DNA of 21,586 nucleotides from a virus (Duplodnaviria > Heunggongvirae > Uroviricota > Caudoviricetes). A model generated the notes under the pieces. The model was not told where the DNA came from and searched no databases. It saw only the letters and a list, made by a program, of their open reading frames with translations. Where the stretch lies: IMG/VR virus record IMGVR_UViG_3300032163_000007, positions 1 to 21,586 of that record; one strand, given 5' to 3'. Positions 1 through 16,243 of this stretch are shown here, in pieces. A program made the translations under genes and the position numbers. Positions within the stretch are counted from its first letter, which is position 1, and each line of letters starts with the position of its first letter.

Positions 1-569
1 TGTCGGTATCTCAAAGTACCTTAGAAGCATCCTTAAAGGAGTTTTTCCAACACAATGTGGGTCTGGGGTCGACTTCAGACTTAGACGCGCTTTACGACGA
101 TATAGCGCAGCGCTTTGCAGAGGTTATAGACGACTACGTAAAGACTTCATCAGACTCTGTGGGTAACTCTTGCTTGGGAGGTAGTGTCAGTACTCTTAAG
201 GGACTATTCAAAACACTGTTCAAAAACTCTACTACTGCTGCCTACTTTGCAACAAACTTTGACCTAGCCCTTACTACATATGCAGCAGCGATTCTATTCT
301 CCTTTTCATTTGTGCCTTTAGATGGTGTTTTTGGCACCGGTGTGTCAAACGCAGTTATACCGGCTCCTGCGGGGGTTGCTGGAGCACTCTTAGCAGAGCT
401 GGGAGCAGACTATTCGCCCTATGCTAACCTCGACACATATCTTAGTCAAAAGGTCAGTGCTATCAGCAGTATCATAACAGGCTTCGTGAAGTCCCGTACT
501 ACTTTAATAGCGTACTTTATACCTGGAACTCCTCTAGTACCAGCTGTTGCTACATTAACTGTTAGTTAG
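1..569 (+). CDS. Baseplate-associated hypothetical structural protein (5' end at the window edge)
   Basis: The frame of ORF 57..569 is open back to position 3 (SVSQSTLEASLKEFFQHN-V...). Positions 1-2 are 'TG', consistent with an ATG cut by the window edge. It has two copies of an 'A/S..I..[YF]VK[ST]' motif (FAEVIDDYVKTS; ISSIITGFVKSR) that I associate with small myophage baseplate proteins. Confidence 0.6.
   Translation, partial: SVSQSTLEASLKEFFQHNVGLGSTSDLDALYDDIAQRFAEVIDDYVKTSSDSVGNSCLGGSVSTLKGLFKTLFKNSTTAAYFATNFDLALTTYAAAILFSFSFVPLDGVFGTGVSNAVIPAPAGVAGALLAELGADYSPYANLDTYLSQKVSAISSIITGFVKSRTTLIAYFIPGTPLVPAVATLTVS
141..158 (+). repeat. 18-bp exact direct repeat AAGACTTCATCAGACTCT (copy 1)
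   Basis: Identical sequence at 5160-5177. Both copies are read in frame as KTSSDS. Confidence 0.85.
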
Positions 570-578
570 GCGTGTGCT

Positions 579-590
579 GGATGATAATTA
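579..590 (+). promoter_or_regulatory. Candidate phage late-promoter element GGATGATAATTA (copy 1)
   Basis: The same 12-mer occurs in the intergenic gap at 5802-5813. Both copies precede an RBS of a structural gene. Confidence 0.45.
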
Positions 591-614
591 AACAGACCTT
601 AAAGGAGAGATATC

Positions 615-1895: not shown

Positions 1896-3361
1896 TGCTA
1901 GCGACAGTTTCAAGATATATCGTTAAAGCGGGGGATACACTCCCAAGTATAGCAAAAGAGGTTTATGGAGATCCTGCGACCTGGTCACGAATAGCTCAGT
2001 TTAACCAGCTGGACTACCCATATATAGCGGTAGAGGATACTAGTGCAAGAGCTAGGGGGTATGTTACAGTATATAGAGATCCCACATATCTTACGGAAAA
2101 TCCTCTTGACGACATAGTGATTCCCAGCAACACCATGTTTACTGCTAGCTCAGATGGGGGTACTAAGACCTACGAGCTACAGACAAAAGCTAGTGTGACT
2201 TTCGTTAGCTGGTTACCTCTGATAGAATTACCTATTGTATGCACAAGTTATGGTATATTTGGGGAAACCCCAGCATCCACCATTGTAGCTCTCTCTACCC
2301 CTATAAGTAAGGTTAGTTCTATTATAAATAGCGAGCCTGTAACTTTGTACCCTACATATATAAGGGCAGTGGGAGAGATAGACGTTTCAATAATAGGGAC
2401 ACCTCCAACAACATTCAATCAAGGAATGATCCTCTCAACAACCTACTCGCAAAACACCCAGACGGACATTAGATACTATCAAGTTACAGAGGATGTAGTA
2501 GGAGGTACTACGAATACTCTGCCTGTGCGTGCGATGGAATCGGGAAATGTTGGAAACGTACCTCCTGACTCCATAAATACAATCAACTTCTACACGCCAC
2601 AAATAAAGGTTGCTTCTATTGACGCAACGCATAAAAAGGTGTATCTTACATCAAATAAACATGGAATTACAGCAGGTAGTAGCTTTAGGTTAGCAGAAAC
2701 CCTAGGCAACGATGGAGTATACTTGTGTGCAAGTGTAAGTTTAGATGGTAGTACCATCACTCTCAATTCTGCAGGTGGTGATTTGATCACACCAGAGAGT
2801 GATAACGGCACAATACAAAAAATGCCCTCCTTTATGGAGTATGTCGCCAGCGTAAGTAACGCAGATGCTATCTCCAATGGTGTTATTTTAAAGGTTGCAG
2901 CATTAGGGAATATTCTTTATATTCCCGCTATGAGTGCTACGACTAATACACCACCATCAGAGCTTGAGGCAGATGTGTACATTCGTAGGCTTAAGCAAGA
3001 TATCTTTTTAGACCCTGATGGAGATATTGCGATAGATGTAACGGGGGATATTCGAGTGGTAGAAGGTTTATCCAATATAGAGCAAGCTCTTCGGATAAGG
3101 CTATCTAGTAACGTTGGATCCCTAACGCATCACCCAGAGTATGGATCCCTTGTACACAGATTTATAGGGAGCTTAGGGAATGCAATTAATCTTATGATAA
3201 TTAAAAAAGAAATTATTAGAACGCTTCGTGCAGAAGAGAGAGTAGCAAGAATAGATGATGTGCGGCTAACTTTTGCGAACAGAACCTTAGACATCCGCAT
3301 ATACGCTACAATCATAGGTAGTGATGATATCCAGAATATAGCGTTTTCAATAAATCCCTAG
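1895..3361 (+). CDS. LysM domain / baseplate-J-like beta domains / gp25 (gpW-like) baseplate wedge fusion protein
   Basis: The likely start is ATG 1895 (TAATG overlap with the upstream stop) rather than 1865. N-terminal LysM: YIVKAGDTLPSIAKEVYGDPATWSRIAQFNQL. C-terminal gp25-like: GDIRVVEGLSNIEQALRIRLSSNVGSLTHHPEYGS...IIRTLRAEERVARIDDV. Confidence 0.85.
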   Translation: MLATVSRYIVKAGDTLPSIAKEVYGDPATWSRIAQFNQLDYPYIAVEDTSARARGYVTVYRDPTYLTENPLDDIVIPSNTMFTASSDGGTKTYELQTKASVTFVSWLPLIELPIVCTSYGIFGETPASTIVALSTPISKVSSIINSEPVTLYPTYIRAVGEIDVSIIGTPPTTFNQGMILSTTYSQNTQTDIRYYQVTEDVVGGTTNTLPVRAMESGNVGNVPPDSINTINFYTPQIKVASIDATHKKVYLTSNKHGITAGSSFRLAETLGNDGVYLCASVSLDGSTITLNSAGGDLITPESDNGTIQKMPSFMEYVASVSNADAISNGVILKVAALGNILYIPAMSATTNTPPSELEADVYIRRLKQDIFLDPDGDIAIDVTGDIRVVEGLSNIEQALRIRLSSNVGSLTHHPEYGSLVHRFIGSLGNAINLMIIKKEIIRTLRAEERVARIDDVRLTFANRTLDIRIYATIIGSDDIQNIAFSINP

Positions 3362-3370
3362 GAGGAATAG

Positions 3371-4756
3371 ATGGCTTTTACTATTAAGAACTTTGAGCAG
3401 ATATCCTACAGTATGATTAACTGGATGCATAATGCTGCTCCCAATATATCAGACTTTTTTGTAGGTAGCGTAGTAAGGACTCTTTTAGAGTCTGTTGCGA
3501 TGGAGTTAGATGAAATTTATTGGAGGACTTACAACTCTCTTACGGAAGCACAGTCAGAGGGTGTGTATAGTGCATTCGACTTTCCAAGAGAGCCTGCGAA
3601 AGAGGCGACAGGGTTTGTTACACTGATTGCAACAAGCTCTGGATCAGACATATCTATTCCAGCAGGTACAACATTTAACACTCAGGGGTCTGAGAATAAT
3701 CCAGAGGTTCTGTTTAAGTCTATGGCCTCCACATTCTTATACAGAGGCACAGGTGTAACAGAGCAGATATTATTCCACGCAGGTACTACGGCGTATGCTC
3801 CAGCGCAGAGACGTGTAAACACAGGAGTAGCTACTACCATGTTCGCTCACTCTGCGGGATTATTCCAAGAGCTACTTGAAGGAACTGACTACACTATAGA
3901 CACTACCAGCTCCACACAGAACTATATCGTGTTTACCAATACGATTCTCGTAGATGACAGCACATACTTTACATTTACATATACACCTCTTAGTGCGGAG
4001 GTTCAAATTATATGCACACAGACGGGGGAAGTTGGTAATGTCGGAGCAGGTACTATTACAAGTATGAAGTCACCTATTACAGGAGTTGCTTCACAGTATA
4101 ACTATGAGTCTTTTTCTAGTGGGGCAGGAGTGGAGTCGGATAGTGCTAGAAAGAGCCGATTTTCCTTATTTATTGGAGGATTATCCCGTGGGACTCTTGA
4201 TGCACTTAACTACGCGATATTTTACAGAACAACACAGTTTAAAGTATTCTCAGCGTTTATCCAAGAGAACTCCCCCATTCCCGGGTTTATTAAAATATAC
4301 ATCGCCGATAGTACTGGGTTTGCAAGCGATGCTATGAAGGCAGATGTTTTGGCAGCTATTGAGCCATATAGGGGTGCAGGAATTATTATAAACGTGGATA
4401 GTCCCACTAAAGTTCTTATAGATGTGGAGTGTAAGTTAAGGCTTAAAAATGGGTTCAATAAAGACATCATTATAGCCCAAGTCGGATCGGCTTTAAGTGA
4501 TCACTTGAGCAAGTATAGTTACTTAGATAATGGGGACTACTCTACCGTGTACCTCACTAATTTAGACTATATAGTAAAGGGTATGCGTCCCGAGGCCATT
4601 ATTGAGGCAGACATATCCTTTAAGAGGCAGACCGATGCTTGGTTAAATCCAGGTGACCCACTCACTCCTAGGCTAATTGAGGATATCATCCCAATTACAA
4701 ACGGTACAATTGCGGAGATATTTAGACCTGGTACTATTGGAGTTACCTCTTGGTAG
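3371..4756 (+). CDS. Baseplate J-like (gp6-like) wedge protein
   Basis: GGAGGA RBS at 3361-3366. Motifs 'DFFVGSVVRTLLESVA', 'ISIPAGT', 'CTQTGEVGNVGAGTI', 'GAGVESDSARKSRF...LSRGTLDAL', 'IEPYRGAGI'. Confidence 0.92.
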   Translation: MAFTIKNFEQISYSMINWMHNAAPNISDFFVGSVVRTLLESVAMELDEIYWRTYNSLTEAQSEGVYSAFDFPREPAKEATGFVTLIATSSGSDISIPAGTTFNTQGSENNPEVLFKSMASTFLYRGTGVTEQILFHAGTTAYAPAQRRVNTGVATTMFAHSAGLFQELLEGTDYTIDTTSSTQNYIVFTNTILVDDSTYFTFTYTPLSAEVQIICTQTGEVGNVGAGTITSMKSPITGVASQYNYESFSSGAGVESDSARKSRFSLFIGGLSRGTLDALNYAIFYRTTQFKVFSAFIQENSPIPGFIKIYIADSTGFASDAMKADVLAAIEPYRGAGIIINVDSPTKVLIDVECKLRLKNGFNKDIIIAQVGSALSDHLSKYSYLDNGDYSTVYLTNLDYIVKGMRPEAIIEADISFKRQTDAWLNPGDPLTPRLIEDIIPITNGTIAEIFRPGTIGVTSW

Positions 4757-4760
4757 GCTC

Positions 4761-5795
4761 ATGTCTATAGCATATGAAATTAAGAATATTCTGGGGTTTG
4801 CAGGGGAAGGCGAAGCTACTCTAGTTTGGGGAGAGCCTTTAGACTCTGACAACGTAACAAACTATTTTTATAATAGGTATGATGCCGTAGGAGGCAACTC
4901 GGGATGGATTCCTCTGGGCAGTAAAGAAGTCCTTAAGTCTATAAACTTAGGTGGTGCTGGTGCAAACTTCCTCTTATATAAGTTTAATAATCTTACCAAT
5001 GACACAGTGTATACTTATAGGATAGCAGCAGCCTCTCTCGGCTCTTCTGACATATTTTTAGATGCAAACTGTATAAGTACATACATAACCCCTTCTAGTA
5101 TAAAGAATGGGGAACCTTCTCCTGAGAGGTTGATGCGAGGCCTAGACACCAGTATCTTTAAGACTTCATCAGACTCTACTTTGTACAAAATATTTTATAT
5201 CCTAGCTATACACATAAGAGACTTCTACCTTGATTTAGGTAATGAGGCGCTGCCCCAATTAAATATATTAACAAGCACCGGAGAGTACGTTGACAACTGG
5301 GGATTTCTCTTTGGAATGAATAGGCAGCGTTTCGAGCCGGATCAGATTTATGCTGCACGTATTGTTAAAGGGATCCTAATAGAGAAGTGCACTCCTCAAG
5401 GCATTATTAAGGCTTTGACCCCTTATTCAGTAGTAGGAGTACCTGTTCAAGTAATTGATGGATCCAAAGATTACACTAGGTTTGTTTTTGATGCCTCTGT
5501 TTTGGGGGGACCTCCTACAGCTGATGGAGTCAGTCTTGATTTCGATCCTTATGCAATAGCGGGGTATATTCCAGGAACACCTGTTGGTTTTGTGGAGGAT
5601 GGTGTCTTGACTTATTCTCCACTCTTTGGAGACACTTTTGGTGGTATTGGTCTTGACAGCTTTAGTTTCATAGTAAGGCTCAGACCTATTGCTATAGGAT
5701 CTCCAGCTACTACAGCCAACACCCTAAGCATAGTATCCGAGATACTTCGAAAGTACCATATGGCAGGAACATCGTTTGAAATACAGACTATTTAG
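4761..5795 (+). CDS. Baseplate wedge protein (gpI/gp7-like, DUF2313-like) with N-terminal fibronectin type III domain
   Basis: The likely start is ATG 4761, 4 nt after the baseplate J stop. FN3 pattern: 'AGEGEATLVWGEP...Y...W...FNNLTNDTVYTYRIAA'. gpI-like motif: 'TSTGEYVDNWGFLFGMNRQRFEPDQIYAARI'. It follows baseplate J as in P2-type J-I order. Confidence 0.75.
   Translation: MSIAYEIKNILGFAGEGEATLVWGEPLDSDNVTNYFYNRYDAVGGNSGWIPLGSKEVLKSINLGGAGANFLLYKFNNLTNDTVYTYRIAAASLGSSDIFLDANCISTYITPSSIKNGEPSPERLMRGLDTSIFKTSSDSTLYKIFYILAIHIRDFYLDLGNEALPQLNILTSTGEYVDNWGFLFGMNRQRFEPDQIYAARIVKGILIEKCTPQGIIKALTPYSVVGVPVQVIDGSKDYTRFVFDASVLGGPPTADGVSLDFDPYAIAGYIPGTPVGFVEDGVLTYSPLFGDTFGGIGLDSFSFIVRLRPIAIGSPATTANTLSIVSEILRKYHMAGTSFEIQTI
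5160..5177 (+). repeat. 18-bp exact direct repeat AAGACTTCATCAGACTCT (copy 2)
   Basis: Identical to 141-158. Confidence 0.85.
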
Positions 5796-5801
5796 AATAT
5801 A

Positions 5802-5813
5802 GGATGATAATTA
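5802..5813 (+). promoter_or_regulatory. Candidate phage late-promoter element GGATGATAATTA (copy 2)
   Basis: Identical to 579-590. Lies in the 34-nt gap before the fibre gene. Confidence 0.45.
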
Positions 5814-5829
5814 GGAAAGAGGATATTTA

Positions 5830-7917
5830 ATGACGAAAAATTGGCCAATTGATAGTAACCACTTTAACAATAGTGGTAATGTTTATAGTCTTAGACGCAA
5901 GTATTTTTTTAGTGATAAGAACACAGATACATTTGATGTAAATAATCACTTCTCTAGATCTGCTTACTCTCTACAAAACTTCTCCTCTATTCGAGAAGGT
6001 CTTGACTTCCGTGTGGCTACTTCAAGTTCCGTATCCTTTGGATTTGGCTCATTCATGCACTGCGTGGATGGGAGTGTATTTAGTCAACCCATAAAAAATA
6101 TAAGCAACGTGGGATACCTATCCAGTGTGGATCATAACAGTAGCACAATACACGTAGGTCCCCTATATGATGTGCCTATGCAGTCTTACGACAATACGAA
6201 AGTATTTGCATTTCACTCCCTAGTAGGACTATCTACGTACCCTGCAGGGATGTCTGATCCTGTTTACGGAACAGTGACGGTAGATAATCCAGCAGTATAT
6301 TTGGCTTCAGATTTTGGTAATGATCAGGATTATCGCACTCCTTATATAAGTGTTACTCCGTTCGTGGCAAATCAAATTAACATGTCCGGTCTAACTGCAG
6401 GTGCTAACTATGATCTATATGTAGACTACACACCAGATGTAACGGCTACTTGGGATGCCATTCCCAATCAGAACTACACGGTAGCTAGTGGGGGTTCAAC
6501 AACAATACTCAAAGCCAGCGCTTCTACTTTCCTTCCGGGAGACATTGGCAAATGGGTAACCATTCGTACAGGGACTTACGCAGGGAAAAAGAGACAGATC
6601 GTATATTACATAGACAATCAGCATGTAGAGATAGAGGCGTTACCTGGTATACCAGCTGACGGAGTTCTGTTTTATGTGCATAGAGGTCAAGCACTACTCC
6701 CCACTCTCGCTAATAGTCCCCGATATGATGTTATAGGTATTAAGAAGAAAACATATGAAGTAAAAAAGAATGTTCAAGGCGTAGACTCAACAGGAATGCC
6801 TACTGTAGCTCCAGAGACTGCAAGATACTTCTCAACTTTCCAATTAGTGGTACAAGAGGGAGTCATACCTGTAGATGGTGGAGCTTCTATCAGTCCTTCA
6901 ACTCCTCTAGGATACCTCACTGCCGGTGACTTTATTCCTCTGGGTCTAGTTATTGCCACCAACACAGGTATAACTTTCATAAACCAAAAATTCCCTTGGA
7001 TATCCATGTTTAGAGAGCGCGGTCTTCAAACAGCCAACCTTCTTGCAAATAGCAGCTTTGAGACATGGCCTTCAACAAATCCGGATAGATGGACAGCGGT
7101 AGCAGGAGCTACTATTACTAAGGGGACACCTAGAATAGGTAGTAACTCAGCAAAAATTGTCACTACAAGCGCTCAGAACTGTATGTTCCAAACTGGTAGC
7201 CTTTCTCAAGTGGGTATTCATGTGGGAGACTGTATCTTGTTTAGCGCTTGGATGAATTCAACTGTAGTGCTTCCTGTGGGAAGGCTCCGTATGGTAATCA
7301 CCAGTAACTCCAGTAATAGCGATGCAGGTGCAGTTAAACTAGATATACATTCCAGTGATAGTATTAAATATGATGCTAACAGCAGCGGTTTTACCACGGT
7401 TACTTGTCGCGCTAGTATCCCAGTAGATGCTGGGATCGTTCCCACCGATTATATATTCTTTTACATAGAGGCATTACAAACTACAGGAGCTGGGTACTTT
7501 CAGGTAGATGACTGTGTAGCTTTTAAAATAGGTAGTATGTATAATGGTATGTATACTGCTAGCAGCGGTTCTGCTACCCTATTAACGGGAGACGTAATTG
7601 TAGCTGGGGATCTCTCGGCAAACGCCATCTCTGCTGCAAAAGATCTAACTGCCAATAATTTCCACTCTTATACAGGAACATTATCTGCAGGTGGTAACTG
7701 GCTTCCATTAGGAACTTATTTTTATCAGGATATCACAGGGATTTATGGGTCATCTCCCTCTAAGCGAAATGCCTTCATTCCCTCTTTTGTGGATAGTGCA
7801 ACAAATAAGGTAGTAGAAGTTCACGACATAGAAACAACTGACGCTAATGGTAATACAATCAGAGTATGGGTAACGGATAACACTAAGACCCTTATTTACA
7901 CAATAATTAAGGTATAG
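5830..7917 (+). CDS. Tail fibre / receptor-binding protein with a carbohydrate-binding-module-like domain
   Basis: Follows the wedge genes. Fibre-anchor-like motif 'NSPRYDVIG...VVQEG...PSTP...IPLGLV'. CBM4/9-like jelly roll 'NLLANSSFETW...LFSAW...FQVDD' (7036-7530). Beta-helix-like linker 'GDVIVAGDLSANAISA'. Confidence 0.7.
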   Translation: MTKNWPIDSNHFNNSGNVYSLRRKYFFSDKNTDTFDVNNHFSRSAYSLQNFSSIREGLDFRVATSSSVSFGFGSFMHCVDGSVFSQPIKNISNVGYLSSVDHNSSTIHVGPLYDVPMQSYDNTKVFAFHSLVGLSTYPAGMSDPVYGTVTVDNPAVYLASDFGNDQDYRTPYISVTPFVANQINMSGLTAGANYDLYVDYTPDVTATWDAIPNQNYTVASGGSTTILKASASTFLPGDIGKWVTIRTGTYAGKKRQIVYYIDNQHVEIEALPGIPADGVLFYVHRGQALLPTLANSPRYDVIGIKKKTYEVKKNVQGVDSTGMPTVAPETARYFSTFQLVVQEGVIPVDGGASISPSTPLGYLTAGDFIPLGLVIATNTGITFINQKFPWISMFRERGLQTANLLANSSFETWPSTNPDRWTAVAGATITKGTPRIGSNSAKIVTTSAQNCMFQTGSLSQVGIHVGDCILFSAWMNSTVVLPVGRLRMVITSNSSNSDAGAVKLDIHSSDSIKYDANSSGFTTVTCRASIPVDAGIVPTDYIFFYIEALQTTGAGYFQVDDCVAFKIGSMYNGMYTASSGSATLLTGDVIVAGDLSANAISAAKDLTANNFHSYTGTLSAGGNWLPLGTYFYQDITGIYGSSPSKRNAFIPSFVDSATNKVVEVHDIETTDANGNTIRVWVTDNTKTLIYTIIKV

Positions 7918-7926
7918 GAGTAATAA

Positions 7927-9339
7927 ATGCAAGTAATAGGCAAACGTGAGCAGCGCTCAACATTGAATTACCCCTTTGATTTAAGTGGTACCAGCACTTG
8001 GGGTAACACAAGCAATCTTCCTGAAGCTAGATTTGATGCAGCTTTATGTTATGACTCTCTTAACGCTAGACTTATTATAGGAGGTGGCCGTACAGACGCT
8101 ACCTATACTGCTCTTGCTACAACAAAGGTGTCCTATGATGGAGTTACTTGGGCAGCAGGACCGTCTTGCGCGGGTCTCTATGGGCATAAGATGGTTCAAT
8201 TTGGTAATGATCTTTGGGTTACTGGTGGACATACCTCAGGTGGAGATGTTAGAAATAACATAGCTATATCTGTTGGGGGCACGGCTAGCTTCACAGATAA
8301 CTTAGGTGGGTCTGGCATGACTGTAGCCAGAGGCTACCACGGCTCAGTAGTATTCAATGGTAAGCTATATGTTATTGGTGGAGAAGGTTCTGGTGGGAGC
8401 TATCTTAATTCTATCTCTTATAACTCCTCATACCCAGCAGCTTTTACTACCGTTACCCCAGCAGCTATGTGGGCAGGTAGAAAAGGACTTGGCTGCATAG
8501 TATTTCAAGGCAAGGTATGGGTAATCGGAGGACAGACTGGAAGCAGCGCCTATGACAACCAAATATGGTGGTCAAGCTCTCCAGAAACTAGCTGGACTCA
8601 GGTAACTCCGGTTGTAACAGGAGGGTCTCTATTTGGAGGCAGATCCGGCATGTCCTTATTTATATATAATGGGAAGATGTACCTGTTTGGTGGTTTTAAT
8701 GGCACTACATACCTGTCTGACCTGTATAGTACAGTAGATGGAACAAATTGGGTTGTAGAATCGGTATCTGTCACAGGTCTCGCAGGAGCTGGGTATGCGT
8801 CTGCATTAACGGCTTTTTCGAACCAGATATTTTACATGGGTGGGATCACAGGAACAAACGCATCTCCAACATACACAGGAGCTGTTTGGACCTACCCACA
8901 AGACCAGCAAGCCACTTATGGGAACCTACACGTAGTAGGTACCATGCATGCAAAGAAGCTTTGGAGCTACGCTATTGGAGCATACTACGCAGACTTGGGA
9001 GAGTACTTTTACTGCGATGAGAACTTACCTAATGGTACTCCTGTGTCTATCATAGGATATCGAAAAGTAGGTAGGTACAACGGAAAGAACTTTGCTGGAA
9101 TTATAACTATAAACTCTGGTGTGTACATGGGAGAAGACCTTAAAGGATTACCTAACACAGCACTAGTGGGACTTGCAGGTACCGTGTCTATGTGCGTTGA
9201 TGATCCTTCTATTGAGACTGGGGATGAGATTACTGCAGTAGGCTTTGAGTTTGTTAAGAAGACGAAAGAGACCCAACCAGTTCTAGCTATAGCTCAAACT
9301 TCCTATAACAAGGGTAGCGTTATAGTCTTAAAGACCTAG
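7927..9339 (+). CDS. Kelch-repeat beta-propeller tail spike / receptor-binding protein with a C-terminal peptidase G2-like (intramolecular chaperone) domain
   Basis: TAGGAG RBS. Six GG-type Kelch blades (LIIGGG, LWVTGGH, LYVIGGE, VWVIGGQ, MYLFGGF, IFYMGGI). Linker 'GNLHVVGTMHAKK', then 'YYADLGEYF...GTPVSI...FAGII...VGLAGTV...IETGDEI', the pattern of phi29 gp12-type C-terminal chaperones. Confidence 0.75.
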   Translation: MQVIGKREQRSTLNYPFDLSGTSTWGNTSNLPEARFDAALCYDSLNARLIIGGGRTDATYTALATTKVSYDGVTWAAGPSCAGLYGHKMVQFGNDLWVTGGHTSGGDVRNNIAISVGGTASFTDNLGGSGMTVARGYHGSVVFNGKLYVIGGEGSGGSYLNSISYNSSYPAAFTTVTPAAMWAGRKGLGCIVFQGKVWVIGGQTGSSAYDNQIWWSSSPETSWTQVTPVVTGGSLFGGRSGMSLFIYNGKMYLFGGFNGTTYLSDLYSTVDGTNWVVESVSVTGLAGAGYASALTAFSNQIFYMGGITGTNASPTYTGAVWTYPQDQQATYGNLHVVGTMHAKKLWSYAIGAYYADLGEYFYCDENLPNGTPVSIIGYRKVGRYNGKNFAGIITINSGVYMGEDLKGLPNTALVGLAGTVSMCVDDPSIETGDEITAVGFEFVKKTKETQPVLAIAQTSYNKGSVIVLKT

Positions 9340-9364
9340 ACCACTACAACCAAGGAGTCGTAAT

Positions 9365-9949
9365 ATGACATTTAGTTGGACAAACACCAATACTCCCTGC
9401 AGTCGAAATAGTGCAAATGGGAATAACCCCTCGCCTGTTGCTACGACAAGTATAGCTAAAGCTGCAGATCTTAATGAGGTCAGATCAGCTGTAGAGGGAA
9501 TCTATGGCTACTACCACGGCAAAGATGTAGCCTGCCCAGTTGCTCCCTCTTGGGATGGTGTAATGGCTTCTGCAGTGGCTGGAAATATTGTAAGCGCCTC
9601 CCATATAAATGAGCTGAGATATGCAGTAAACGCGCTACGTACTACTTACAACGTCTGTGACTGTAATGGTCCTCATTGCTACGATCAAGGCAACTGTAGC
9701 AGTGGTTATTGTTGCTGGAATTGGTGTAATCCACAGGATAGAGATCGAAGATACTCTTATTTTGGGCAGCCAGGAGCATTTGCTTGGACTGGCTCTGATC
9801 CGGAGAGTGATGTGAATCCTAAGCGAGTAGGAGCATCAAAGCCCGTATCAGCAGGTGCTATACAAGAACTAAGAAATGCCATCGACACAATGAACAACGC
9901 CAGTACCTGGGGTGGCAGACAGAGTTCAGGAAATAACCTAACATTCTAA
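9365..9949 (+). CDS. Cys-rich repeat protein; putative substrate of the adjacent radical SAM enzyme and possible tail accessory protein
   Basis: AAGGAG RBS at 9352-9357. Three W...[IV]xAxx[LI][NQ]E[LV]RxA[VI] repeats. Central segment C98-C121 has 7 Cys in 24 residues. Lies directly upstream of a radical SAM/SPASM gene. Confidence 0.7.
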   Translation: MTFSWTNTNTPCSRNSANGNNPSPVATTSIAKAADLNEVRSAVEGIYGYYHGKDVACPVAPSWDGVMASAVAGNIVSASHINELRYAVNALRTTYNVCDCNGPHCYDQGNCSSGYCCWNWCNPQDRDRRYSYFGQPGAFAWTGSDPESDVNPKRVGASKPVSAGAIQELRNAIDTMNNASTWGGRQSSGNNLTF

Positions 9950-9960
9950 AAGGGAAATTT

Positions 9961-11361
9961 ATGTACACTTGGGCCACGCTCAACCTAACGAATCAATGCA
10001 ACCTTTCTTGCACTTACTGCTTCGAGAGAGTGAGGAACGCGAAAGCCATGTCTTTTGAGGAAGCCAAAGACATTATCGATGAGCTTCTTTCTCATAATGA
10101 CGGAAAGACTCCTCTCAGTTTGTGGCTATTTGGCGGGGAGCCTACTCTTGTTCCAGAGCTAACAGTAGAAATTATACACTACATTAATGAGACCACTTCT
10201 ATAAGAAAGACTTTTTTAGGTGTTGTTATGTTTACTAATGGACTACTCTGGTCCCAAGATATAATTGATGAAATGTTAAAAAGCTCCGGCTACACCTCCT
10301 ACAACATACAAATATCTTACGATGGAGACTCAAATTCAGCACGAGATCGAGGAAACCTAGCACTTAGAACGGCTACGGAACAAAACATGTTAAAGTATAT
10401 AGATTCTGGGTTAAAGGCTACTATACGGTCTACAATAACTCCAGAAAGCTATGTTCCAGGGACACTATACAACCTGCTACAGCTCTCCCATCAGATTGGT
10501 ATATCTTTTGCAGCGAACTTCCTATCTGAGGCTTTCTCTTATTCTCCAGAAGTGGTAGAGGCCATTAAACAGGATCATGAAAGATGCGCTGAGCAGATTT
10601 TGGAATGGTACCGCGCAGATGATTTGGGGGAGTATGTATTTTATAGCTTTGACCCTCGCATATTTTATAATGACTCAGAAAAAGGCTGCTCAGTTACTCA
10701 AGGTAACGCCGTTAGTTTTTTACCAGGAGACCCCACCGAATATGTTTGTAACTACGCTGCGAGTCATCCTGAAGCGGAGTTTCGAGTTAAGTCTGAATGT
10801 GCCACATGTGATGTTCCAGGTTGTAACCTATGCGGGTTGCAGGAGTCTGTTGAGGGTCCTCTTGATGAATCATTCTGTGACTTCAAGAAAATGATATACA
10901 GGGATGTTTTGCTAAAGTTTAGAGATGACCTTATCAAAGAGGGGTTGGCATTTATTCCCAAAGAGGACGACCTTTTTGTAATCCGTATGCTAGAGAGTAC
11001 TTTTGCATTTTTATATCCTCTGCGCCCAGAGCATATGGGGACCTTTATGCCTAATCTACCCCCTCCTCACCATTTTCGAAGTCTCAGTGAGTACTTGAGA
11101 CATACTGCATTCGTATTATTGGACCTAGCTCAAAGTATTTTGAATAGGGAAGGACTTCTCAGAGAATTAGGAGTTGACATTCAAACCAAAGACGATGTAT
11201 ACTCGTACTTAACGTATTTAGTAGGGCAAGTCATCAGTTTTAAGTATGCTACTCCGGACGCTAAGTTCATTAAGTTAGATACTTTTGACGCAATTACCCT
11301 GATGTTTATGTTGTTAGAAGCGACGAAGCCCTTAGAGACTGTAAAAAGTAATGCAGCATGA
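9961..11361 (+). CDS. Radical SAM enzyme with a compact SPASM-type auxiliary Fe-S region and an extra C-terminal domain (putative peptide/protein maturase)
   Basis: CxxxCxYC motif C13/C17/C20 (QCNLSCTYC), 'FGGEPTL', 'FTNGLL', 'IQISYDG', 'IRSTIT'. Seven further Cys: C243, C263, C280, C283, C288, C291, C306. Confidence 0.92.
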   Translation: MYTWATLNLTNQCNLSCTYCFERVRNAKAMSFEEAKDIIDELLSHNDGKTPLSLWLFGGEPTLVPELTVEIIHYINETTSIRKTFLGVVMFTNGLLWSQDIIDEMLKSSGYTSYNIQISYDGDSNSARDRGNLALRTATEQNMLKYIDSGLKATIRSTITPESYVPGTLYNLLQLSHQIGISFAANFLSEAFSYSPEVVEAIKQDHERCAEQILEWYRADDLGEYVFYSFDPRIFYNDSEKGCSVTQGNAVSFLPGDPTEYVCNYAASHPEAEFRVKSECATCDVPGCNLCGLQESVEGPLDESFCDFKKMIYRDVLLKFRDDLIKEGLAFIPKEDDLFVIRMLESTFAFLYPLRPEHMGTFMPNLPPPHHFRSLSEYLRHTAFVLLDLAQSILNREGLLRELGVDIQTKDDVYSYLTYLVGQVISFKYATPDAKFIKLDTFDAITLMFMLLEATKPLETVKSNAA

Positions 11362-11379
11362 AAGCATAATTAAAAAGAG

Positions 11380-13446
11380 ATGTTAGTACCAGCACTATAT
11401 TTTAAACGAGTAACGAAGTACTTTCCAGCACTACTTAAGAAGTATGAGGGGCAAAAGAAGGATTCGGGTCCTCTAGTTCACAGATACGTCTATAAAGAGA
11501 TGAACGCTAGTGGTGAATGGGATTATATCTATCCTGAGGACTTACAGCGTATGGAGAGAGAAAAGGGTCCTGAGCTTGACAAGTTCCAAAGAAGTAAGAA
11601 CTATAAGTCAAATATGCGCCGCATACAAAAGCTTCAAGAGGAACAGAAGCAGAACCCAGCAAAATATGAAGAGAATAAGTTATTGGCTAGTACTCAGAGA
11701 GCCGAAGAGCCTCCTCCTAAGATATCTCCTGCAACTTTAAAAGCAAAGAAGCTTGAGTATGGCATGGATCCAGATGCTACTGCTACCTGGTTTGTAGATA
11801 CTGAGACAGGAGAAATCCGTCCAGTTATGAGGGAGCACGAAGATGTTCCTGCTGACCGTAGAGGGATACAGATACTTCCTGGAGATATTATAAAATATGA
11901 CCAGACCAAAGCGGCACATTATACTAAAGCGGAAAAAGGCGAAGATGGCAACTTTAAGAATCCTGCGGGCAAGGCAAAGAGTACTGAGGGCATATTTATG
12001 GGTCAATCTGAAGACGATCCAAATATGGCAGTAGTAGCTGTACACAGCGGAAACAGAAATGGAAAATATCTGGTTCCTATGAGTAGTATCAAACACCATC
12101 TAACACATCCTGAGAAGCATGCCGAGAAGCAAAAGGAGGTTCAGGCAACTGCAGCTTATAAGAAGAATTTAAAAGAGAGCTTGTGGAAGAAGGAATATGG
12201 ATCCCCGGGGATGTCCGTAAAAGAAATAGATGCACTCTTCCTGGCTCAGCCCGAGATAAGCGGTGGAGAGAGAACTACTACCGACCCAGAGACCGGAGAA
12301 ACAAAGACAGTGAAGATTCAGGGAATAATTCCTAAACTAGAGAACAGGCTTAAAAAGATTTTCTATCTATCAGACTTTGCCAAGAATGAGCTTACTGGAT
12401 ACTTACAGGATTTCTGCACAGACTCTTCAAAAACTCAACTAGTTAGATTGGCTTCACAGAGGGAGTCTGAGGGCTATGTAGATGAGGAGACAGGAGAAAC
12501 TGTAGAGGGTACAGGAGCTCCAGCAGCTGGTATTAGTAATAGGGTCATGACTAGACGCGCTAAAGGCATCATTGACCATCTCAATAATACGCAGACGCAC
12601 GCGCTAGCTGGTTGGTGTAAGGAAGTTATCGCAGGGAAATTTGGTATGTCCGAGTTCACTGGAGACGATATGCACAACACTATACGCTATATGAAGGTAC
12701 TTCAAGAGCTTCAGGCGAAAAACGTCGGGGATGTTACGAAGCTACCTATGAAGGCGAAGGCTGAGGGTCTCAAGCAGTCTATGATAGATAGGTTCCATGG
12801 AACCATAGCTAAACACACGAGAACGCTTGATAACGCCTTCACAGATATAGGCACTAACTACGACCCCGAAGTAAAAGCAGCAGCTAAAGAGAAGCTAAAC
12901 GGGTACATAGCCAAGGCTAAGGTAGCTATAGAAAATCTCGATAAGAAGCCTATTAGTTACTTCGAAGATCTAGTAACAACATACGACCGCTACGTATCCT
13001 TTAAGCAACTCAGTGACATAAATTCCGCCGAGGGTGTTGGTGACAGGAATATAGAGGTGTCCAACTCTATGTACGAGGGAGCAAGCGGCAGGGACACTAG
13101 AAATAAGAAGGCCCTAGAGCACTTTCAAAAGTATCTGCCTAAGATTAAGACACTTCTTCAGGGTACTGGAATGACTGAAGCACAGGTCCAGAGACTCGTT
13201 GACTATCATACAAGCTTAGACACGGGTCAAACGGAATATGAACCCTGGCAGGGCTCGGACGCGGAAGCAGCCCTTACAAAAATAGGGAAAGAGCATCCAG
13301 AGACTATGGACACCCTTAACGAGCTGATAGCTCAGGGCTTGAATCTGGCTGCAGATAAAGACAAAGACCTTTACGGTGAAGACTTCGAAGATGAGGATGA
13401 GTATGACAGTGACTTCGATCCAGCTGACAACACATCTTCTTATTAA
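11380..13446 (+). CDS. Large hypothetical protein (688 aa); possibly virion-packaged, weak sigma-70-like signature in the C-terminal half, acidic tail
   Basis: Long, highly charged ORF. N-terminal 'HRYVYKE...GEWDYIYPED' motif, SH3/KOW-like segment 'ILPGDIIKY...EGIFMG...AVVAV...YLVPMSSI', three DxETGE repeats, D/E-rich C-terminus. Confidence 0.6.
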   Translation: MLVPALYFKRVTKYFPALLKKYEGQKKDSGPLVHRYVYKEMNASGEWDYIYPEDLQRMEREKGPELDKFQRSKNYKSNMRRIQKLQEEQKQNPAKYEENKLLASTQRAEEPPPKISPATLKAKKLEYGMDPDATATWFVDTETGEIRPVMREHEDVPADRRGIQILPGDIIKYDQTKAAHYTKAEKGEDGNFKNPAGKAKSTEGIFMGQSEDDPNMAVVAVHSGNRNGKYLVPMSSIKHHLTHPEKHAEKQKEVQATAAYKKNLKESLWKKEYGSPGMSVKEIDALFLAQPEISGGERTTTDPETGETKTVKIQGIIPKLENRLKKIFYLSDFAKNELTGYLQDFCTDSSKTQLVRLASQRESEGYVDEETGETVEGTGAPAAGISNRVMTRRAKGIIDHLNNTQTHALAGWCKEVIAGKFGMSEFTGDDMHNTIRYMKVLQELQAKNVGDVTKLPMKAKAEGLKQSMIDRFHGTIAKHTRTLDNAFTDIGTNYDPEVKAAAKEKLNGYIAKAKVAIENLDKKPISYFEDLVTTYDRYVSFKQLSDINSAEGVGDRNIEVSNSMYEGASGRDTRNKKALEHFQKYLPKIKTLLQGTGMTEAQVQRLVDYHTSLDTGQTEYEPWQGSDAEAALTKIGKEHPETMDTLNELIAQGLNLAADKDKDLYGEDFEDEDEYDSDFDPADNTSSY

Positions 13447-13477
13447 AGTAAGCTTTTAATAATTTATAGAATCAGGT

Positions 13478-14284
13478 ATGCCAAAAAAGAATTTAGGAGT
13501 AACCTATAAGTTAATGCCATGCTCTATGGAGGAGCATGAGGGTGTTAAGCAGATGATACTCTTTTATAGAGATCTGATTCAGAGAAGATTTAGGGTCAAT
13601 GTCTATGGGTTTTTGAAGAAGAACCTCAGAGAAATGAAGTCTTGGAACAAGCTATACTTATCATATAAGTGGCTAAAAGAGGAGGGTATAAATGTTAAGG
13701 AATATTGGCAGGTGGTTGTACATAACTTTGAGCCGAGTATCTTCAAACATGCCTATCCTTTTCTAATTAACGCAAAGGCTTATGAAGGCCTTTACATTAG
13801 TGGAGTAGATCTCACAAAAAGAGAAAACGGAGGAGCCAACTCTACTAAATTCTCGTCTAGTTTCCATGTTACACTCAAGGTGATAGGTAGAGACCTTATA
13901 ACACTTAAAAAGCTTAAGATATCGAATAAAGCGATGGCTGACACTGATATAATGCTAGACTTCCTAGGCTTCTTCACCAATACCTTCATATTGTCAGATT
14001 TAACCTTATTTATAGCTCTAGCAGAGCAACCAAAGCTGTTCGAAAGTTACTTTTTGGATTTACACAGGCGTAAAGATATCAAGCTACTTCATAATAGGCT
14101 GTTCTATGATCAGGTAGAGTATGATAAGCTCGTTGAGTACCGAAAGATCATGGAAAGCTACATTGATCAGCGCATTGATACTGAACGAGATATGTATTTA
14201 TTAAATCCGTCGGGATTTTTGATAGGATTACAGAACGATCTAGAGGAGGTCAATTATATGATTAGTGAGGCACCATGCAAGTAA
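13478..14284 (+). CDS. Hypothetical protein coupled to the helicase gene (candidate helicase loader or replication initiator); exact start uncertain
   Basis: 268-aa ORF whose 3' end overlaps the helicase start by 10 nt. RBS at 13478 is poor; in-frame ATGs at 13514, 13526 and 13553 are alternatives. Confidence 0.55.
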   Translation: MPKKNLGVTYKLMPCSMEEHEGVKQMILFYRDLIQRRFRVNVYGFLKKNLREMKSWNKLYLSYKWLKEEGINVKEYWQVVVHNFEPSIFKHAYPFLINAKAYEGLYISGVDLTKRENGGANSTKFSSSFHVTLKVIGRDLITLKKLKISNKAMADTDIMLDFLGFFTNTFILSDLTLFIALAEQPKLFESYFLDLHRRKDIKLLHNRLFYDQVEYDKLVEYRKIMESYIDQRIDTERDMYLLNPSGFLIGLQNDLEEVNYMISEAPCK

Positions 14285-15669
14285 AACAATATGAATTTGA
14301 TGAAGAGTTTCAATGGAAGATTCTAGCACTCATGGTGCAAGAGGATAATCTTGTCAGAGATCATTATGATACTCTACACTCATCTTTCTTTACTAATCCT
14401 ATCTTTCAGAATCTGTGTAGAATTATAACTGAGTTCGTAACCAAATATGGAGTGCCTCCTTCTGAGGATATTCTTATTGAGCTGGTAAGGACATTCACAA
14501 ACAGAGATATCTACAGAGCTGAGCAAGAGCTATATATGGACATCACCAAGGAGCTTTATGCATTCTCTCTAAAGGGTAAAGATTACATCCTTGATCAGAT
14601 TATTGGATTTGGTAAGCATAGAGCTCTAGAGAACGCTATTCTTAAGAGTGTGGAACTTCTTAAGGATCATGAGTATGAGAAGATAACATCAGTAATACAG
14701 GAGGCTGCAAGAGTGGGCGTAAGCAAAAAGAATATAGGATCATTTTATTTGGATGGTGCAGACGCACGTACGTTAAAGAGAAGCATGCCACCTAGAAGTG
14801 TTGTACCAACAGGCTTTGCTGATTTAGATAAGTATCTAGAGGATGGTGGGATGCATGCACAGGAGTTAGCTTTTATTCTAGCTCCGTCTAGCGCTGGTAA
14901 ATCACTGATGTTAGGGAACCTGGCCAGGAACGCACTACTTAACAGGTTTAAGGTGCTGTATATAACTCTCGAAATGAGTATTGAGCAGATTGAGACCCGT
15001 TTAGACAGCATGTTCGTGGAAACAAGGAAAAAGGAATTAAAGCATAAGGGAGAGAACCTGACATCCAAGATGAAGGCAGTTAAGCTCCTTGGTGGTAACA
15101 TCCATATCCAGCACTTCCCCTCCAAGTCAATCACAACTAATGACATTATTGCGTACATAGATATGTTAAGAGTTACATATAATTTTGAACCAGACATCCT
15201 CTTTGTAGATTATGCTGATCTTATGAATCCCGTTGATCCCCAAAAGGATGAGCGTTTGAGACAGGCTAAAGCCTTTGAAGATCTCTTCTCTCTTGCAGGT
15301 ACTCTTCAGATTCCAGTGTGGACAGCTACTCAAGCTAATGCCAGTGCCTATACTGCAGCCAAAGAAAAGCGCAACATCGAGATGCAGGATGCTAGTGAGA
15401 GCAAAAATAAAGCTTTTACTGCGGATCTAGTTGTTAGTTTGCAGAGCTTAGAAAAATCTCCAGATGGTAGTACAGGTAGAAGCAGACTCTACATAGCCAA
15501 GTACCGTCACGGGGTATCTCAAGTGGCACATGAGATTGATGTCAATTATGACACTATGACAATGCACACGACTGGAAAGCAATTCTCAGATGTAGAAAAA
15601 GATAAGAAGCGCATCAAAGAATTATTTAATGCCCCGATAGAGGAGGAAGCTGATGGCAACAAAAAGTAA
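14275..15669 (+). CDS. dnaB: Replicative DNA helicase, DnaB/T4 gp41-like (SF4)
   Basis: 'VPTGFADLD', Walker A 'APSSAGKS', 'LYITLEMS', Walker B 'ILFVDYADLM', 'VWTATQAN', arginine-finger region 'KYRHG'. Confidence 0.95.
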   Translation: MQVKQYEFDEEFQWKILALMVQEDNLVRDHYDTLHSSFFTNPIFQNLCRIITEFVTKYGVPPSEDILIELVRTFTNRDIYRAEQELYMDITKELYAFSLKGKDYILDQIIGFGKHRALENAILKSVELLKDHEYEKITSVIQEAARVGVSKKNIGSFYLDGADARTLKRSMPPRSVVPTGFADLDKYLEDGGMHAQELAFILAPSSAGKSLMLGNLARNALLNRFKVLYITLEMSIEQIETRLDSMFVETRKKELKHKGENLTSKMKAVKLLGGNIHIQHFPSKSITTNDIIAYIDMLRVTYNFEPDILFVDYADLMNPVDPQKDERLRQAKAFEDLFSLAGTLQIPVWTATQANASAYTAAKEKRNIEMQDASESKNKAFTADLVVSLQSLEKSPDGSTGRSRLYIAKYRHGVSQVAHEIDVNYDTMTMHTTGKQFSDVEKDKKRIKELFNAPIEEEADGNKK

Positions 15670-16243
15670 GAAGATTGGTGTCATGCTGGTGGGTGGAATG
15701 TGCAGTGGCAAAAGCTATTACGCTAAAACACTCAAAGCAGGGATTAGAGGCTCTGGTATATTCAGCTTTGCATGCTCCTTAAAATCCATAGTAGGAAACC
15801 ATTATGCAAAGAAGGCTACCTTCAGCAAAGACGGCTCATACCCAGTGTATAGAAAGAGTATGGATGGTGGATGGGGGCTAGTATCAGGTAGATGGTTGCT
15901 GCAACAAATATCAGAAGCAATCAAGGCAATAGACTACTCCTGGTTTTACGTAGAGACCTACCGTCAGATTGTTGAAAGTCATTCAAAGTTCTTTATTATT
16001 GACGACTGTAGATTTAAAGAGGAGTATGAGTACTTCAAGGGGAAGTTTGAAAAGGTGATCCTTGTGTACCTCGATCTACCCAAAGCCCTTAGAGAAGAGC
16101 GATGTAAGAAGCTTTATGGTACCTCTATTGATACAGATCATGTGTCCGAGAAGGTGGAGTGGGCAAGAGAATATGCTAACTACTTTGTAAAAGAAGAGAA
16201 TAAAGAAAAAGAGCTCTTAGAGTTCATCAAAATCTTTGTCTAG
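15653..16243 (+). CDS. Deoxynucleoside monophosphate kinase (T4 gp1-like P-loop kinase)
   Basis: GAGGA RBS. P-loop 'GGMCSGKS', 'SFACSLK', 'GRWLLQQIS', 'IIDDCRFKEE'. Confidence 0.85.
   Translation: MATKSKKIGVMLVGGMCSGKSYYAKTLKAGIRGSGIFSFACSLKSIVGNHYAKKATFSKDGSYPVYRKSMDGGWGLVSGRWLLQQISEAIKAIDYSWFYVETYRQIVESHSKFFIIDDCRFKEEYEYFKGKFEKVILVYLDLPKALREERCKKLYGTSIDTDHVSEKVEWAREYANYFVKEENKEKELLEFIKIFV

Follow-up and report, generated by a model that had tools for sequence, protein, structure and literature searches.

A two-gene cassette of a Cys-rich scaffold protein and a radical SAM/SPASM-type enzyme closing the tail module of a large myovirus-type phage

The window, that is, the whole stretch of 21,586 nucleotides that was analysed, derives from a large myovirus-type phage whose tail module is closed by a two-gene cassette encoding a Cys-rich protein (P0001) and a radical SAM enzyme (P0002) (Table 1). 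Both genes are as the first-pass annotation had described them, namely a 194-aa protein with a seven-Cys core followed by a radical SAM enzyme after an intergenic gap of 11 nt (9950-9960). The placement of the pair right after a tail gene is likewise confirmed, since the gene directly upstream encodes a Kelch fibre-type protein and is itself preceded by baseplate genes (gp25, Baseplate_J). This Kelch protein shares 54% identity with L013:1-1308. Its C-terminal ~145 residues constitute a conserved domain that is located directly upstream of the Cys-rich gene in three related loci (L012, L013, and L014), shares 35-38% identity with stand-alone 143-aa genes of L012 and L014, and matches PHROG tail-fibre families, although weakly. 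Downstream of the pair, two genes encoding proteins of 688 and 268 aa have no family match, and the replication module (DnaB, primase, and DNA polymerase) starts after them. The absence of a neighbouring transporter, protease, or immunity gene, already remarked upon in the first-pass annotation, holds for these two downstream genes, in which no such family was detected with Pfam, PHROG, and NCBIfam. The stretch is present in two sediment DNA sequencing runs, and no RNA run is listed as containing it; the origin of the sample, a sediment metagenome, is in keeping with an anoxic host.

Table 1. Coordinates of the cassette, of its upstream neighbour, and of the main protein features, in positions of the window
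Feature	Position	Strand	Remarks
Kelch-repeat beta-propeller tail-fibre-type protein	7927..9339	+	470 aa; Pfam Kelch families
P0001, Cys-rich scaffold protein, presumed substrate	9365..9949	+	194 aa; three W[TD]...INELR repeats
Span of the three predicted scaffold helices of P0001 with the xxINELRxAI motif	9461..9898	+	residues 33-51, 78-94, 163-178 (AF2 model)
Cys-dense core of P0001	9656..9727	+	residues 98-121, 7 Cys in 24 residues
P0002, radical SAM/SPASM-type enzyme, presumed maturase	9961..11361	+	466 aa; Pfam PF04055
CxxxCxxC motif of P0002 (C13, C17, C20), for the SAM-cleaving [4Fe-4S] cluster	9997..10020	+	invariant in alignment A2
SPASM-like auxiliary-cluster block of P0002	10687..10878	+	C243, C263, C280, C283, C288, C291, C306; conserved Cys columns in A2
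Alpha-helical C-terminal extension of P0002, ~150 aa	10918..11358	+	helices 304-461 in model; in all full-length relatives

The P0001 gene is preceded, 8 nt upstream, by the ribosome-binding site AAGGAG, and the protein has Cys residues at positions 12, 57, 98, 100, 105, 111, 116, 117, and 121. With the Cys frequency of this phage (1.09%; 16,721 residues sampled), ~9e-5 windows holding 7 Cys in 24 residues are expected by chance. The xxINELRxAI motif occurs in three copies in the P0001 open reading frame. Elsewhere in the 85.6-kb record no gene contains it, and the sole further match of the regular expression lies in an antisense frame broken by stops. Alignments A1 and A3 place the Cys core as an insertion between scaffold repeat helices 2 and 3 and pinpoint C100, C111, and C117 as invariant among relatives. 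Alignments and counts further indicate that the length and the Cys number of the core are hypervariable across the family (5-15 Cys); a G-C-W motif is common in these cores, CxC, CC, and Cys-His patterns also occur, and Cys density is the sole conserved property while all else in the core varies. The AF2 model of P0001 has a pLDDT of 55.7, with the Cys core at low confidence and devoid of regular secondary structure. P0001 is a folded three-repeat scaffold with an inserted Cys core rather than a leader-plus-core peptide, a detail to be amended in the RiPP-style picture of the first-pass annotation, as the core sits between repeats 2 and 3 of the scaffold. Indeed, P0001 departs from classical RiPP precursors in being a 194-aa protein with an internal core, and in having no protease, transporter, or immunity family adjoining it.

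The protein is otherwise isolated in the databases. No match to Pfam, NCBIfam, PHROG, or PDB sequences was obtained with P0001 or with its family profile, the AF2 model gave no match in BFVD at E below 1 (Foldseek), and the Atlas structure matches all have a TM below 0.5 and are leads only. A tblastn search of GenBank phages returned no match, a word-index homologue search returned P0001 itself only, and viral-contig searches with P0001 alone, P0002 alone, or alignment A3 (P0001 first) returned no confirmed locus. Relatives of P0001 were recovered only by exhaustive phmmer and by re-ordered alignments.

P0002 belongs to the radical SAM superfamily (Pfam Radical_SAM, PF04055: 47.9 bits, cut-off 29.5) and carries a GGEP motif at residues 58-61. 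The public gene call of this protein begins at Met30 and so leaves out the CxxxCxxC motif. Where the first-pass annotation had reported seven extra Cys, eight are counted, of which seven indeed form a conserved block while C209 is not conserved. This block, CX19C...CX2CX4CX2C...C, aligns with Cys residues of all full-length relatives (A2). SPASM domains (TIGR04085/PF13186) are defined by the pattern CX9-15GX4C ... CX2CX5CX3C ... C and by two auxiliary [4Fe-4S] clusters, against which the spacing in P0002 is CX12GX6C ... CX2CX4CX2C ... C. The SPASM HMMs of Pfam and NCBIfam give no match for P0002 itself, whose SPASM region is divergent and has a pLDDT below 50 in the model; a relative (L006) scores 24.5 vs a cut-off of 27, a more distant neighbour enzyme in L016 scores 37.6, and relatives of P0002 match TIGR04085 and TIGR04119. 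P0002 presumably carries three [4Fe-4S] clusters. The NCBIfam models nearest to it, each with a score far short of the respective cut-off, are PapB, CcpM, QhpD, CefB, and the SCIFF maturase, and its top Foldseek matches are the SPASM or twitch-domain enzymes CteB, anSME, SkfB, ChlB, TigE, and SuiB; P0002 is kin to peptide- and protein-cross-linking SPASM enzymes. Neither an N-terminal RRE nor a known mode of substrate recognition was found in P0002, and there is no space for an N-terminal RRE since CxxxCxxC begins at residue 13. Substrate recognition, normally a task of the RRE, may fall to the C-terminal extension, with which an Atlas search gave nothing useful. When P0002 and P0001 were modelled as a complex, the score was 0.00, which is evidence neither way. 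A phage housekeeping role of P0002 was considered and rejected; the other two radical SAM open frames of the record are short (226 and 243 aa) and located elsewhere.

The association of both genes extends well beyond this phage. An exhaustive phmmer search of 1.8 billion representative proteins identified about 10 distant relatives of P0001, a rare subfamily with an irregular core inside the scaffold. In 10/10 distinct loci with usable context (the window, L004, where the cassette occurs twice, L005, L006/7, L008, L009/10, L011, L012, L013, and L014), a P0002 homologue is found downstream of the P0001-type gene. The two genes are immediate neighbours everywhere except in the second L004 cassette, in which one opposite-strand gene lies between. 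Full-length homologues of P0002 align across 330-450 residues. The two L004 cassettes belong to different subclades, and the Cys protein and the enzyme of each are nearest to the same other loci, a pattern that argues for their co-inheritance. Furthermore, the usual lack of a Cys-rich neighbour next to enzyme homologues, which by the first-pass annotation would have counted against its own proposal, is not observed: a same-strand open reading frame holding 6 or more Cys within 30 aa lies within 1.5 kb in 64 of the 79 viral loci with related enzymes. Cys-dense open reading frames number 77/701 near these enzymes vs 4/712 far from them (Fisher p = 6e-20, with loci that are partly non-independent). 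The co-occurrence next to fibre or baseplate genes that had been proposed for checking is also found, as fibre-type genes come before the pair in the phage loci with upstream sequence. Because both comparisons turned out this way, a functional pairing and a link to the tail module are supported. In most relatives a third gene (family A5) comes after the enzyme; this family matches nothing in Pfam and PDB, and no homologue exists in the 688-aa or 268-aa proteins or anywhere in the 85.6-kb record, so that the cassette of the window may be incomplete or work differently.

Several characterized systems provide a frame for this pair. CrpC installs ranthionines on the 28.8-kDa CrpA in Methanococcus voltae (PMC13692751, 2026), and both systems have a SPASM or, in the phage, SPASM-like radical SAM gene beside that of a Cys-rich whole protein, CrpA being a thioether-modified protein and not a peptide. 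However, CrpC, a member of TIGR04463, possesses an N-terminal RRE, whereas P0002 has none and TIGR04463 is absent from its best models; CrpA has a leader-like N terminus and C-terminal 17-residue repeats, whereas the core of P0001 is embedded in a three-repeat scaffold; and CrpC/CrpA is archaeal and cellular, whereas P0002/P0001 lies in a phage tail module. The radical SAM/SPASM enzyme QhpD introduces several intra-chain Cys thioethers into QhpC (PMC7876137), a small structural subunit that stays in a larger assembly, quinohemoprotein amine dehydrogenase, and to which P0001 would in this respect be comparable. According to the introduction of PMC13692751, QhpD engages the QhpC leader peptide through an RRE. 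P0002 scores 53.9 bits with the QhpD model TIGR03906 (cut-off 453), and dehydrogenase genes are absent from the phage locus.

The PapB/freyrasin and CteB/SCIFF maturases are the best matches of P0002 in both sequence and structure (NF047865, TIGR03974; PDB 5WGG/5WHY) and combine a SPASM domain with Cys-rich substrates, as P0002 would do with its SPASM-like block and P0001. P0002 nevertheless falls outside both families, with 79.7 bits for PapB (NF047865, N-terminal half only; relatives 84-129 bits, cut-off 340) and 51.4 bits for the SCIFF maturase CteB/ScfB (TIGR03974, cut-off 425), and P0001 does not match the SCIFF precursor family PF13165. The substrates of PapB and CteB are short leader-core peptides whereas P0001 has 194 aa, CteB has an N-terminal RRE whereas the match of P0002 begins only at CteB residue 101, and the ~150-aa C-terminal extension is extra in P0002 compared with both enzymes. 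The anaerobic sulfatase-maturating enzyme anSME (PDB 4K36-4K39; TIGR03942), a top structural match, resembles P0002 by the lack of an RRE and a CxxxCxxC motif near the N terminus, and has a SPASM domain where P0002 has the SPASM-like block; it acts on a whole protein, oxidising one Cys or Ser to formylglycine in the sulfatase motif, but no sulfatase is encoded at the phage locus and P0001 has many Cys. As for the CXXX-repeat target/maturase system (TIGR04115, TIGR04117, TIGR04119), its chemistry is to our knowledge uncharacterised. Relatives of P0002 match TIGR04115 over the full length (59-91 bits; P0002 itself 47.8 bits) and TIGR04119 across the SPASM region and what follows it (34-43 bits), all far below the cut-offs of 350 and 150, respectively. 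Moreover, CXXX repeats are missing from P0001, and its core lies inside the protein instead of at the C terminus.

Given the features of both sequences, the pairing of the genes across loci, their place in the tail module, and the relationships of the enzyme, the reading that we favour, with a confidence slightly better than even, is that P0002 cross-links the Cys core of P0001, probably via thioethers and much as QhpD acts on QhpC and CrpC on CrpA, to give a tail-associated protein. Both genes would then constitute a protein-maturation cassette, in which P0001 is the presumed substrate. P0002 would reductively cleave SAM to yield a 5'-deoxyadenosyl radical, which would remove a hydrogen from a residue of the Cys loop (residues 98-121) that serves as acceptor; a Cys sulfur would then form a thioether (ranthionine or sactionine) on that carbon, and several rounds would lead to a redox-insensitive, covalently stapled knot on the three-repeat helical scaffold. 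Mature P0001 may be a part associated with the tail fibre, such as a distal adhesin or a cap. Thioethers would here replace disulfides, whose formation the reducing cytoplasm of an anaerobic host would prevent.

The destination of the product can be approached from the genes that surround the pair in other phages. In all phage loci with upstream sequence, the Cys-rich gene directly follows fibre-type genes, which encode collagen-like tail fibres in L006, proteins that share the C-terminal domain of these fibres in L008, L009, and L011, and the Kelch-type C-terminal domain in L012-L014, and P0046, a more distant relative, is located after gp25 and baseplate genes. In distant relatives the Cys segment is found at the C terminus: a Peptidase_S74 fibre-chaperone domain, above the Pfam cut-off, comes directly after it in L029, L030, and L044 (L029, L044, and L040 match the P0001-family HMM), another relative has it fused to a central tail fibre J-like protein, and P0041 has CXXX repeats at its end, with two radical SAM genes downstream. 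This position and these fusions, together with the lack in the window of genes for a leader peptidase, a transporter, or immunity, argue against a product that acts outside the virion, a reading that we hold to be unlikely. Modified P0001 would in that case function inside the host cell during infection or be set free by lysis, as an anti-defence, superinfection-exclusion, or bacteriocin-like factor, or would serve as a fibre-assembly chaperone that is not retained. It is consistent with such a role that P0001 matches no structural-protein family and that genes directly after fibre genes often encode assembly chaperones. Moreover, a hydrophobic segment is present at the N terminus of the relative P0008, whose gene belongs to a radical SAM-rich cluster with TatA/TatC in a contig assigned by binning to a Marinamargulisbacteria MAG, which suggests export from a cell. 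The cluster of the L004/L099 relative, with TatA/TatC, is unlike phage DNA, and the P0001 family is for this reason not strictly a virion family.

Turning to the chemistry, the nearest sequence models of P0002 (PapB, SCIFF maturase, and QhpD) correspond to thioether-forming enzymes and only Cys density is maintained in the core, which makes it rather improbable that P0002 modifies P0001 by another radical reaction, be it Cys-to-formylglycine conversion as by anSME, C-C or C-O cross-linking through a conserved aromatic residue (Trp or Tyr), epimerisation, or methylation. Such a reaction would find an argument in the presence of anSME, likewise devoid of an N-terminal RRE, among the best structural matches, in the frequent G-C-W motif of the core, and in the many different reactions catalysed by SPASM enzymes (PMC10288494). 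A defined metal site would not normally show a Cys number varying from 5 to 15 with variable spacing, the pairing of Cys protein and enzyme persists though the upstream fibre type switches between Kelch and collagen-like, and related viral enzymes adjoin many kinds of Cys-repeat tails (79-locus scan); the least probable reading is accordingly that the Cys/His loop is a metal or iron-sulfur site and P0001 not a substrate but a possible helper of the enzyme, for instance an electron or cluster donor, the target being something else, such as a fibre protein or a small molecule, even though Cys-X-Cys, CC, and Cys/His clusters are classic metal-binding patterns, so that the core might bind a metal instead of being cross-linked, and T4-type fibres contain structural metal ions.

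Returning to thioether cross-linking of P0001, we tentatively suggest, as a possible rather than a probable extension, that phages of anaerobes use a radical SAM enzyme to staple a hypervariable Cys loop of a fibre-tip protein and thereby obtain a redox-proof and protease-resistant receptor-binding element. Within the full-text literature searched on phage radical SAM/SPASM enzymes, tail fibres, thioethers, ranthipeptides, and RiPPs, no such system and no publication describing the covalent enzymatic modification of a virion tail protein by a radical SAM enzyme was found; a cyanophage "radical SAM maturase" is only named as an "antibiotic synthesis gene" (PMC12801897).

Thioether formation by radical SAM/SPASM enzymes has been described for small secreted peptides, and few whole-protein substrates are known, among them QhpC and, since 2026, CrpA. 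If a phage applies such chemistry to a tail-associated protein, enzymatic cross-linking would join the ways in which viruses build and diversify their adsorption apparatus. Furthermore, this would account for a group of radical SAM genes that is widespread in phages but lacks annotation, and would provide natural scaffolds, made of three helices and a stapled hypervariable loop, for the engineering of stable binders.

The 194-aa Cys-rich protein P0001 holds Cys residues at positions 12, 57, 98, 100, 105, 111, 116, 117, and 121, and the seven-Cys core noticed in the first-pass annotation is borne out, with 7 Cys in 24 residues against a chance expectation of about 9e-5 such windows (phage Cys frequency 1.09%). 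P0001 matched neither curated families nor solved structures and appeared orphan-like, with no relatives, in a word-index search; an exhaustive phmmer search of 1.84 billion representatives recovered ten relatives (E-values from 1e-12 to 8e-4). Alignments reveal a conserved N-terminus including Cys12 and three copies of a W[TD] - about 20 residues - xxINELRxAI repeat. The Cys-dense segment lies between repeats 2 and 3 and varies in length and Cys count (5 to 15 across relatives), with C100, C111, and C117 invariant. By regular expression, xxINELRxAI occurs three times in P0001 and is absent from all other genes of the record; the sole other match falls within a stop-interrupted antisense frame. 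The AF2 model predicts the three motif helices and gives the core no confident structure (pLDDT 55.7 overall). A profile search widened the family to proteins with the same repeats and a C-terminal Cys-rich segment, e.g., CxCxC runs or CXXX repeats. Given the repeat plan, the internal Cys segment, and this wider family, P0001 is, judged from sequence, a scaffold in which a hypervariable Cys core is embedded, and not a leader-core peptide. The three-fold W/F-TD...HI-x-ELR unit is also found, devoid of a Cys tail, at the ends of bacterial and viral proteins of fn3, RHS, protease, and other types (P0020, P0027, P0036, P0058, and P0059); the unit has no match in the Pfam and NCBIfam copies searched. 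Besides P0001, a single ORF of the record reaches at least 6 Cys per 30-residue window; it lies outside the window, encodes 99 aa with 7 Cys, and has no radical SAM neighbor.

The assignment of P0002 (466 aa), 11 nt downstream, as a radical SAM enzyme is confirmed by C13xxxC17xxC20, GGEP at 58-61, and a Pfam Radical_SAM score above cut-off. It had been credited with seven extra Cys, which holds for the conserved, SPASM-like set (243, 263, 280, 283, 288, 291, and 306), to which a non-conserved Cys 209 must be added. The public call (437 aa) starts at Met30 and loses CxxxCxxC, so that automatic annotation would miss this key feature; alignment with relatives shows the ATG at 9961 to be the true start. 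The closest NCBIfam models (PapB, CcpM, QhpD, CefB, and the SCIFF maturase) all fall far under equivalog cut-offs. Among P0002 relatives, matches span PapB and TIGR04115 end to end and cover TIGR04119 in the SPASM/post-SPASM part. CteB, SkfB, and the tetraether synthase GDGT-MAS are the closest solved sequences, and the first structural matches of the AF2 model (pLDDT 69; radical SAM core 80-90; SPASM region <50) are CteB, anSME, SkfB, ChlB, TigE, and SuiB. While the match starts at residue 101 of CteB, past its RRE, it already starts at residue 7 of P0002, which indicates that the latter has no N-terminal RRE. A helical C-terminal extension of ~150 aa is common to all full-length relatives, and a search for a related domain found none.

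In the contexts of eight P0001 relatives and one more from IMG/VR, a P0002 homolog follows the Cys-rich gene at every locus, with fibre-type genes upstream in those phage loci that have upstream sequence, in line with the co-occurrence originally put forward as a check. Full-length homologs align over 330-450 residues. Locus L004 has two cassettes of Cys-protein and enzyme genes (in the second, one opposite-strand gene intervenes) from different subclades. Within either cassette, the nearest relatives of the Cys protein come from the same other loci as those of the enzyme, which shows that the two genes travel together. Conversely, the enzyme alignment searched against IMG/VR yielded 79 loci; in 64 of them an ORF with 6 or more Cys per 30 aa lies on the same strand, no more than 1.5 kb from a radical SAM gene, contrary to the concern that such enzymes usually lack a Cys-rich neighbor. 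Cys-dense ORFs by this measure numbered 77 of 701 near versus 4 of 712 far (p = 6e-20), many loci being near-duplicates and not independent events. Upstream, L006 has an 875-aa collagen-like tail fibre and a 233-aa collagen-plus-tip protein whose tip domain recurs in L008, L009, and L011, while L012, L013, L014, and the window have a second, Kelch-associated tip domain. That the fibre type changes while Cys protein and enzyme stay together argues for the Cys protein, not the fibre, as the enzyme's likely partner.

The window opens an 85.6-kb record (CheckV, ~57% complete) from a sediment metagenome, of which it is the first 21.6 kb, and these genes also occur on a separate 172-kb contig. As baseplate and Kelch genes precede the pair and the replication module comes later, the pair stands at the end of the tail module. 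Every window gene is on the + strand, the intergenic gaps are 25, 11, and 18 nt, and no convincing promoter or terminator was found between genes; co-transcription with the fibre genes is therefore likely.

Coordinates of the window genes, in order, and of features elsewhere
Feature	Locus	Position	Remark
Virion structural protein	window		first
LysM/Baseplate_J/gp25 fusion, 498 aa	window	1865-3361	N-terminal LysM, Baseplate_J-like middle, C-terminal gp25/sheath-initiator; unusual fusion
Baseplate_J wedge protein	window
372-aa protein	window		baseplate-type PHROG matches
695-aa orphan	window		precedes Kelch gene
Kelch-repeat protein	window	7927-9339 (+)	beta-propeller fibre; ends in ~145-aa domain, motif YADLGEYF...PVSI
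P0001	window	9365-9949 (+)
P0002	window	9961-11361 (+)	9961-10047 lost in public call
688-aa orphan	window	11380-13446	very Lys/Glu-rich, acidic C-terminus; no family match found
268-aa orphan	window
DnaB, dNMP kinase, primase, dCTP deaminase, DNA polymerase	window		replication module
99-aa ORF	G000:C1 (full record)	80820-81119
Stand-alone ~145-aa Kelch-fibre end domain (143 aa)	L012; L014	7570-8001; 5568-5999	directly before Cys-rich gene
A5 third genes	L006; L014; L009; L004; L004	6501-7226; 7984-8712; 3096-3812; 1923-2558; 10933-12096	weakly conserved
Stretch holding the glycosyltransferase-2/methyltransferase fusion (750-760 aa)	L006; L008	6501-9905; 4029-7088	after cassette
S74 proteins	L029; L030; L044	7369-8091; 7378-8088; 7363-8181	small phage proteins
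Radical SAM cluster	L004 (same cluster as L099)	1-15826	16 kb

A link to fibres appears in the wider family. The P0001-family HMM matches L029, L044, and also L040, and in L029, L030, and L044 a Peptidase_S74 (endosialidase chaperone) domain above the Pfam cut-off directly follows the Cys segment. In these three proteins, each encoded directly after two radical SAM genes, a CxCNxDCxCN-type run directly precedes SDERLK, where the self-cleaving chaperone starts. S74 domains fold trimeric fibres and then self-cleave off, so that here the Cys segment would remain at the distal end of the fibre. Furthermore, a central-tail-fibre-J-like protein of L062 is Cys-rich at its N-terminus, the gene of protein P0046 is located after gp25 and baseplate genes, and the gene of protein P0041, which has a CXXX tail, has two radical SAM genes downstream.

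We propose that P0002 would bind P0001, perhaps through its C-terminal extension, and make several thioether links within residues 98-121 by radical chemistry, as do PapB, CteB, and QhpD (PMC7876137), acting on a whole protein as CrpC does on CrpA (PMC13692751). The modified protein would stay with the tail fibre, where thioethers could replace disulfides in a redox-independent manner, which fits the sediment setting. The enzyme probably modifies the Cys core; that the links are thioethers is a tentative assignment by analogy. Less probably, the core is a metal site; Cys-X-Cys is a metal-site pattern as well. The divergent SPASM block of P0002 and the missing third gene also count against the proposed reading. 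This third gene belongs to the A5 family (210-240 aa), for which Pfam and PDB gave no match; it comes after the enzyme gene in L004 (twice), L006, L009, L012, and L014 and is absent from the window and the whole record. In some relatives the glycosyltransferase-2/methyltransferase fusion comes after the cassette, in L008 together with a second, small radical SAM protein of 239 aa, and additional tailoring, e.g., glycosylation or methylation, is possible there.

Whether P0001 is virion-borne is close to evenly balanced, leaning slightly against. A purely virion role is weakened by L004, whose contig was binned with a Candidatus Marinamargulisbacteria MAG and where one relative lies in a radical SAM-rich TatA/TatC cluster; the scaffold family is therefore not restricted to virions. 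Of the eight radical SAM genes in this cluster, two have B12-binding domains and one is MiaB-like. Besides TatA/TatC, it encodes a U32-like peptidase and two full cassettes of Cys protein, enzyme, and third gene, and one of its Cys proteins has an N-terminal hydrophobic segment.

Taken as a dedicated maturation of the neighboring Cys core, the combined reading is the one we mildly favor. SPASM-type cross-linking of a neighboring Cys-rich substrate is of a known kind, of which the window pair would be a variant with proposed chemistry; by sequence, its subfamily is a rare form, with an internal core, irregular Cys spacing, an enzyme devoid of RRE, and no third gene. Full-text literature searches turned up no account of a phage tail protein modified by a radical SAM enzyme, and the pair would thus place predicted SPASM-type cross-linking in a new biological setting, the phage tail module.
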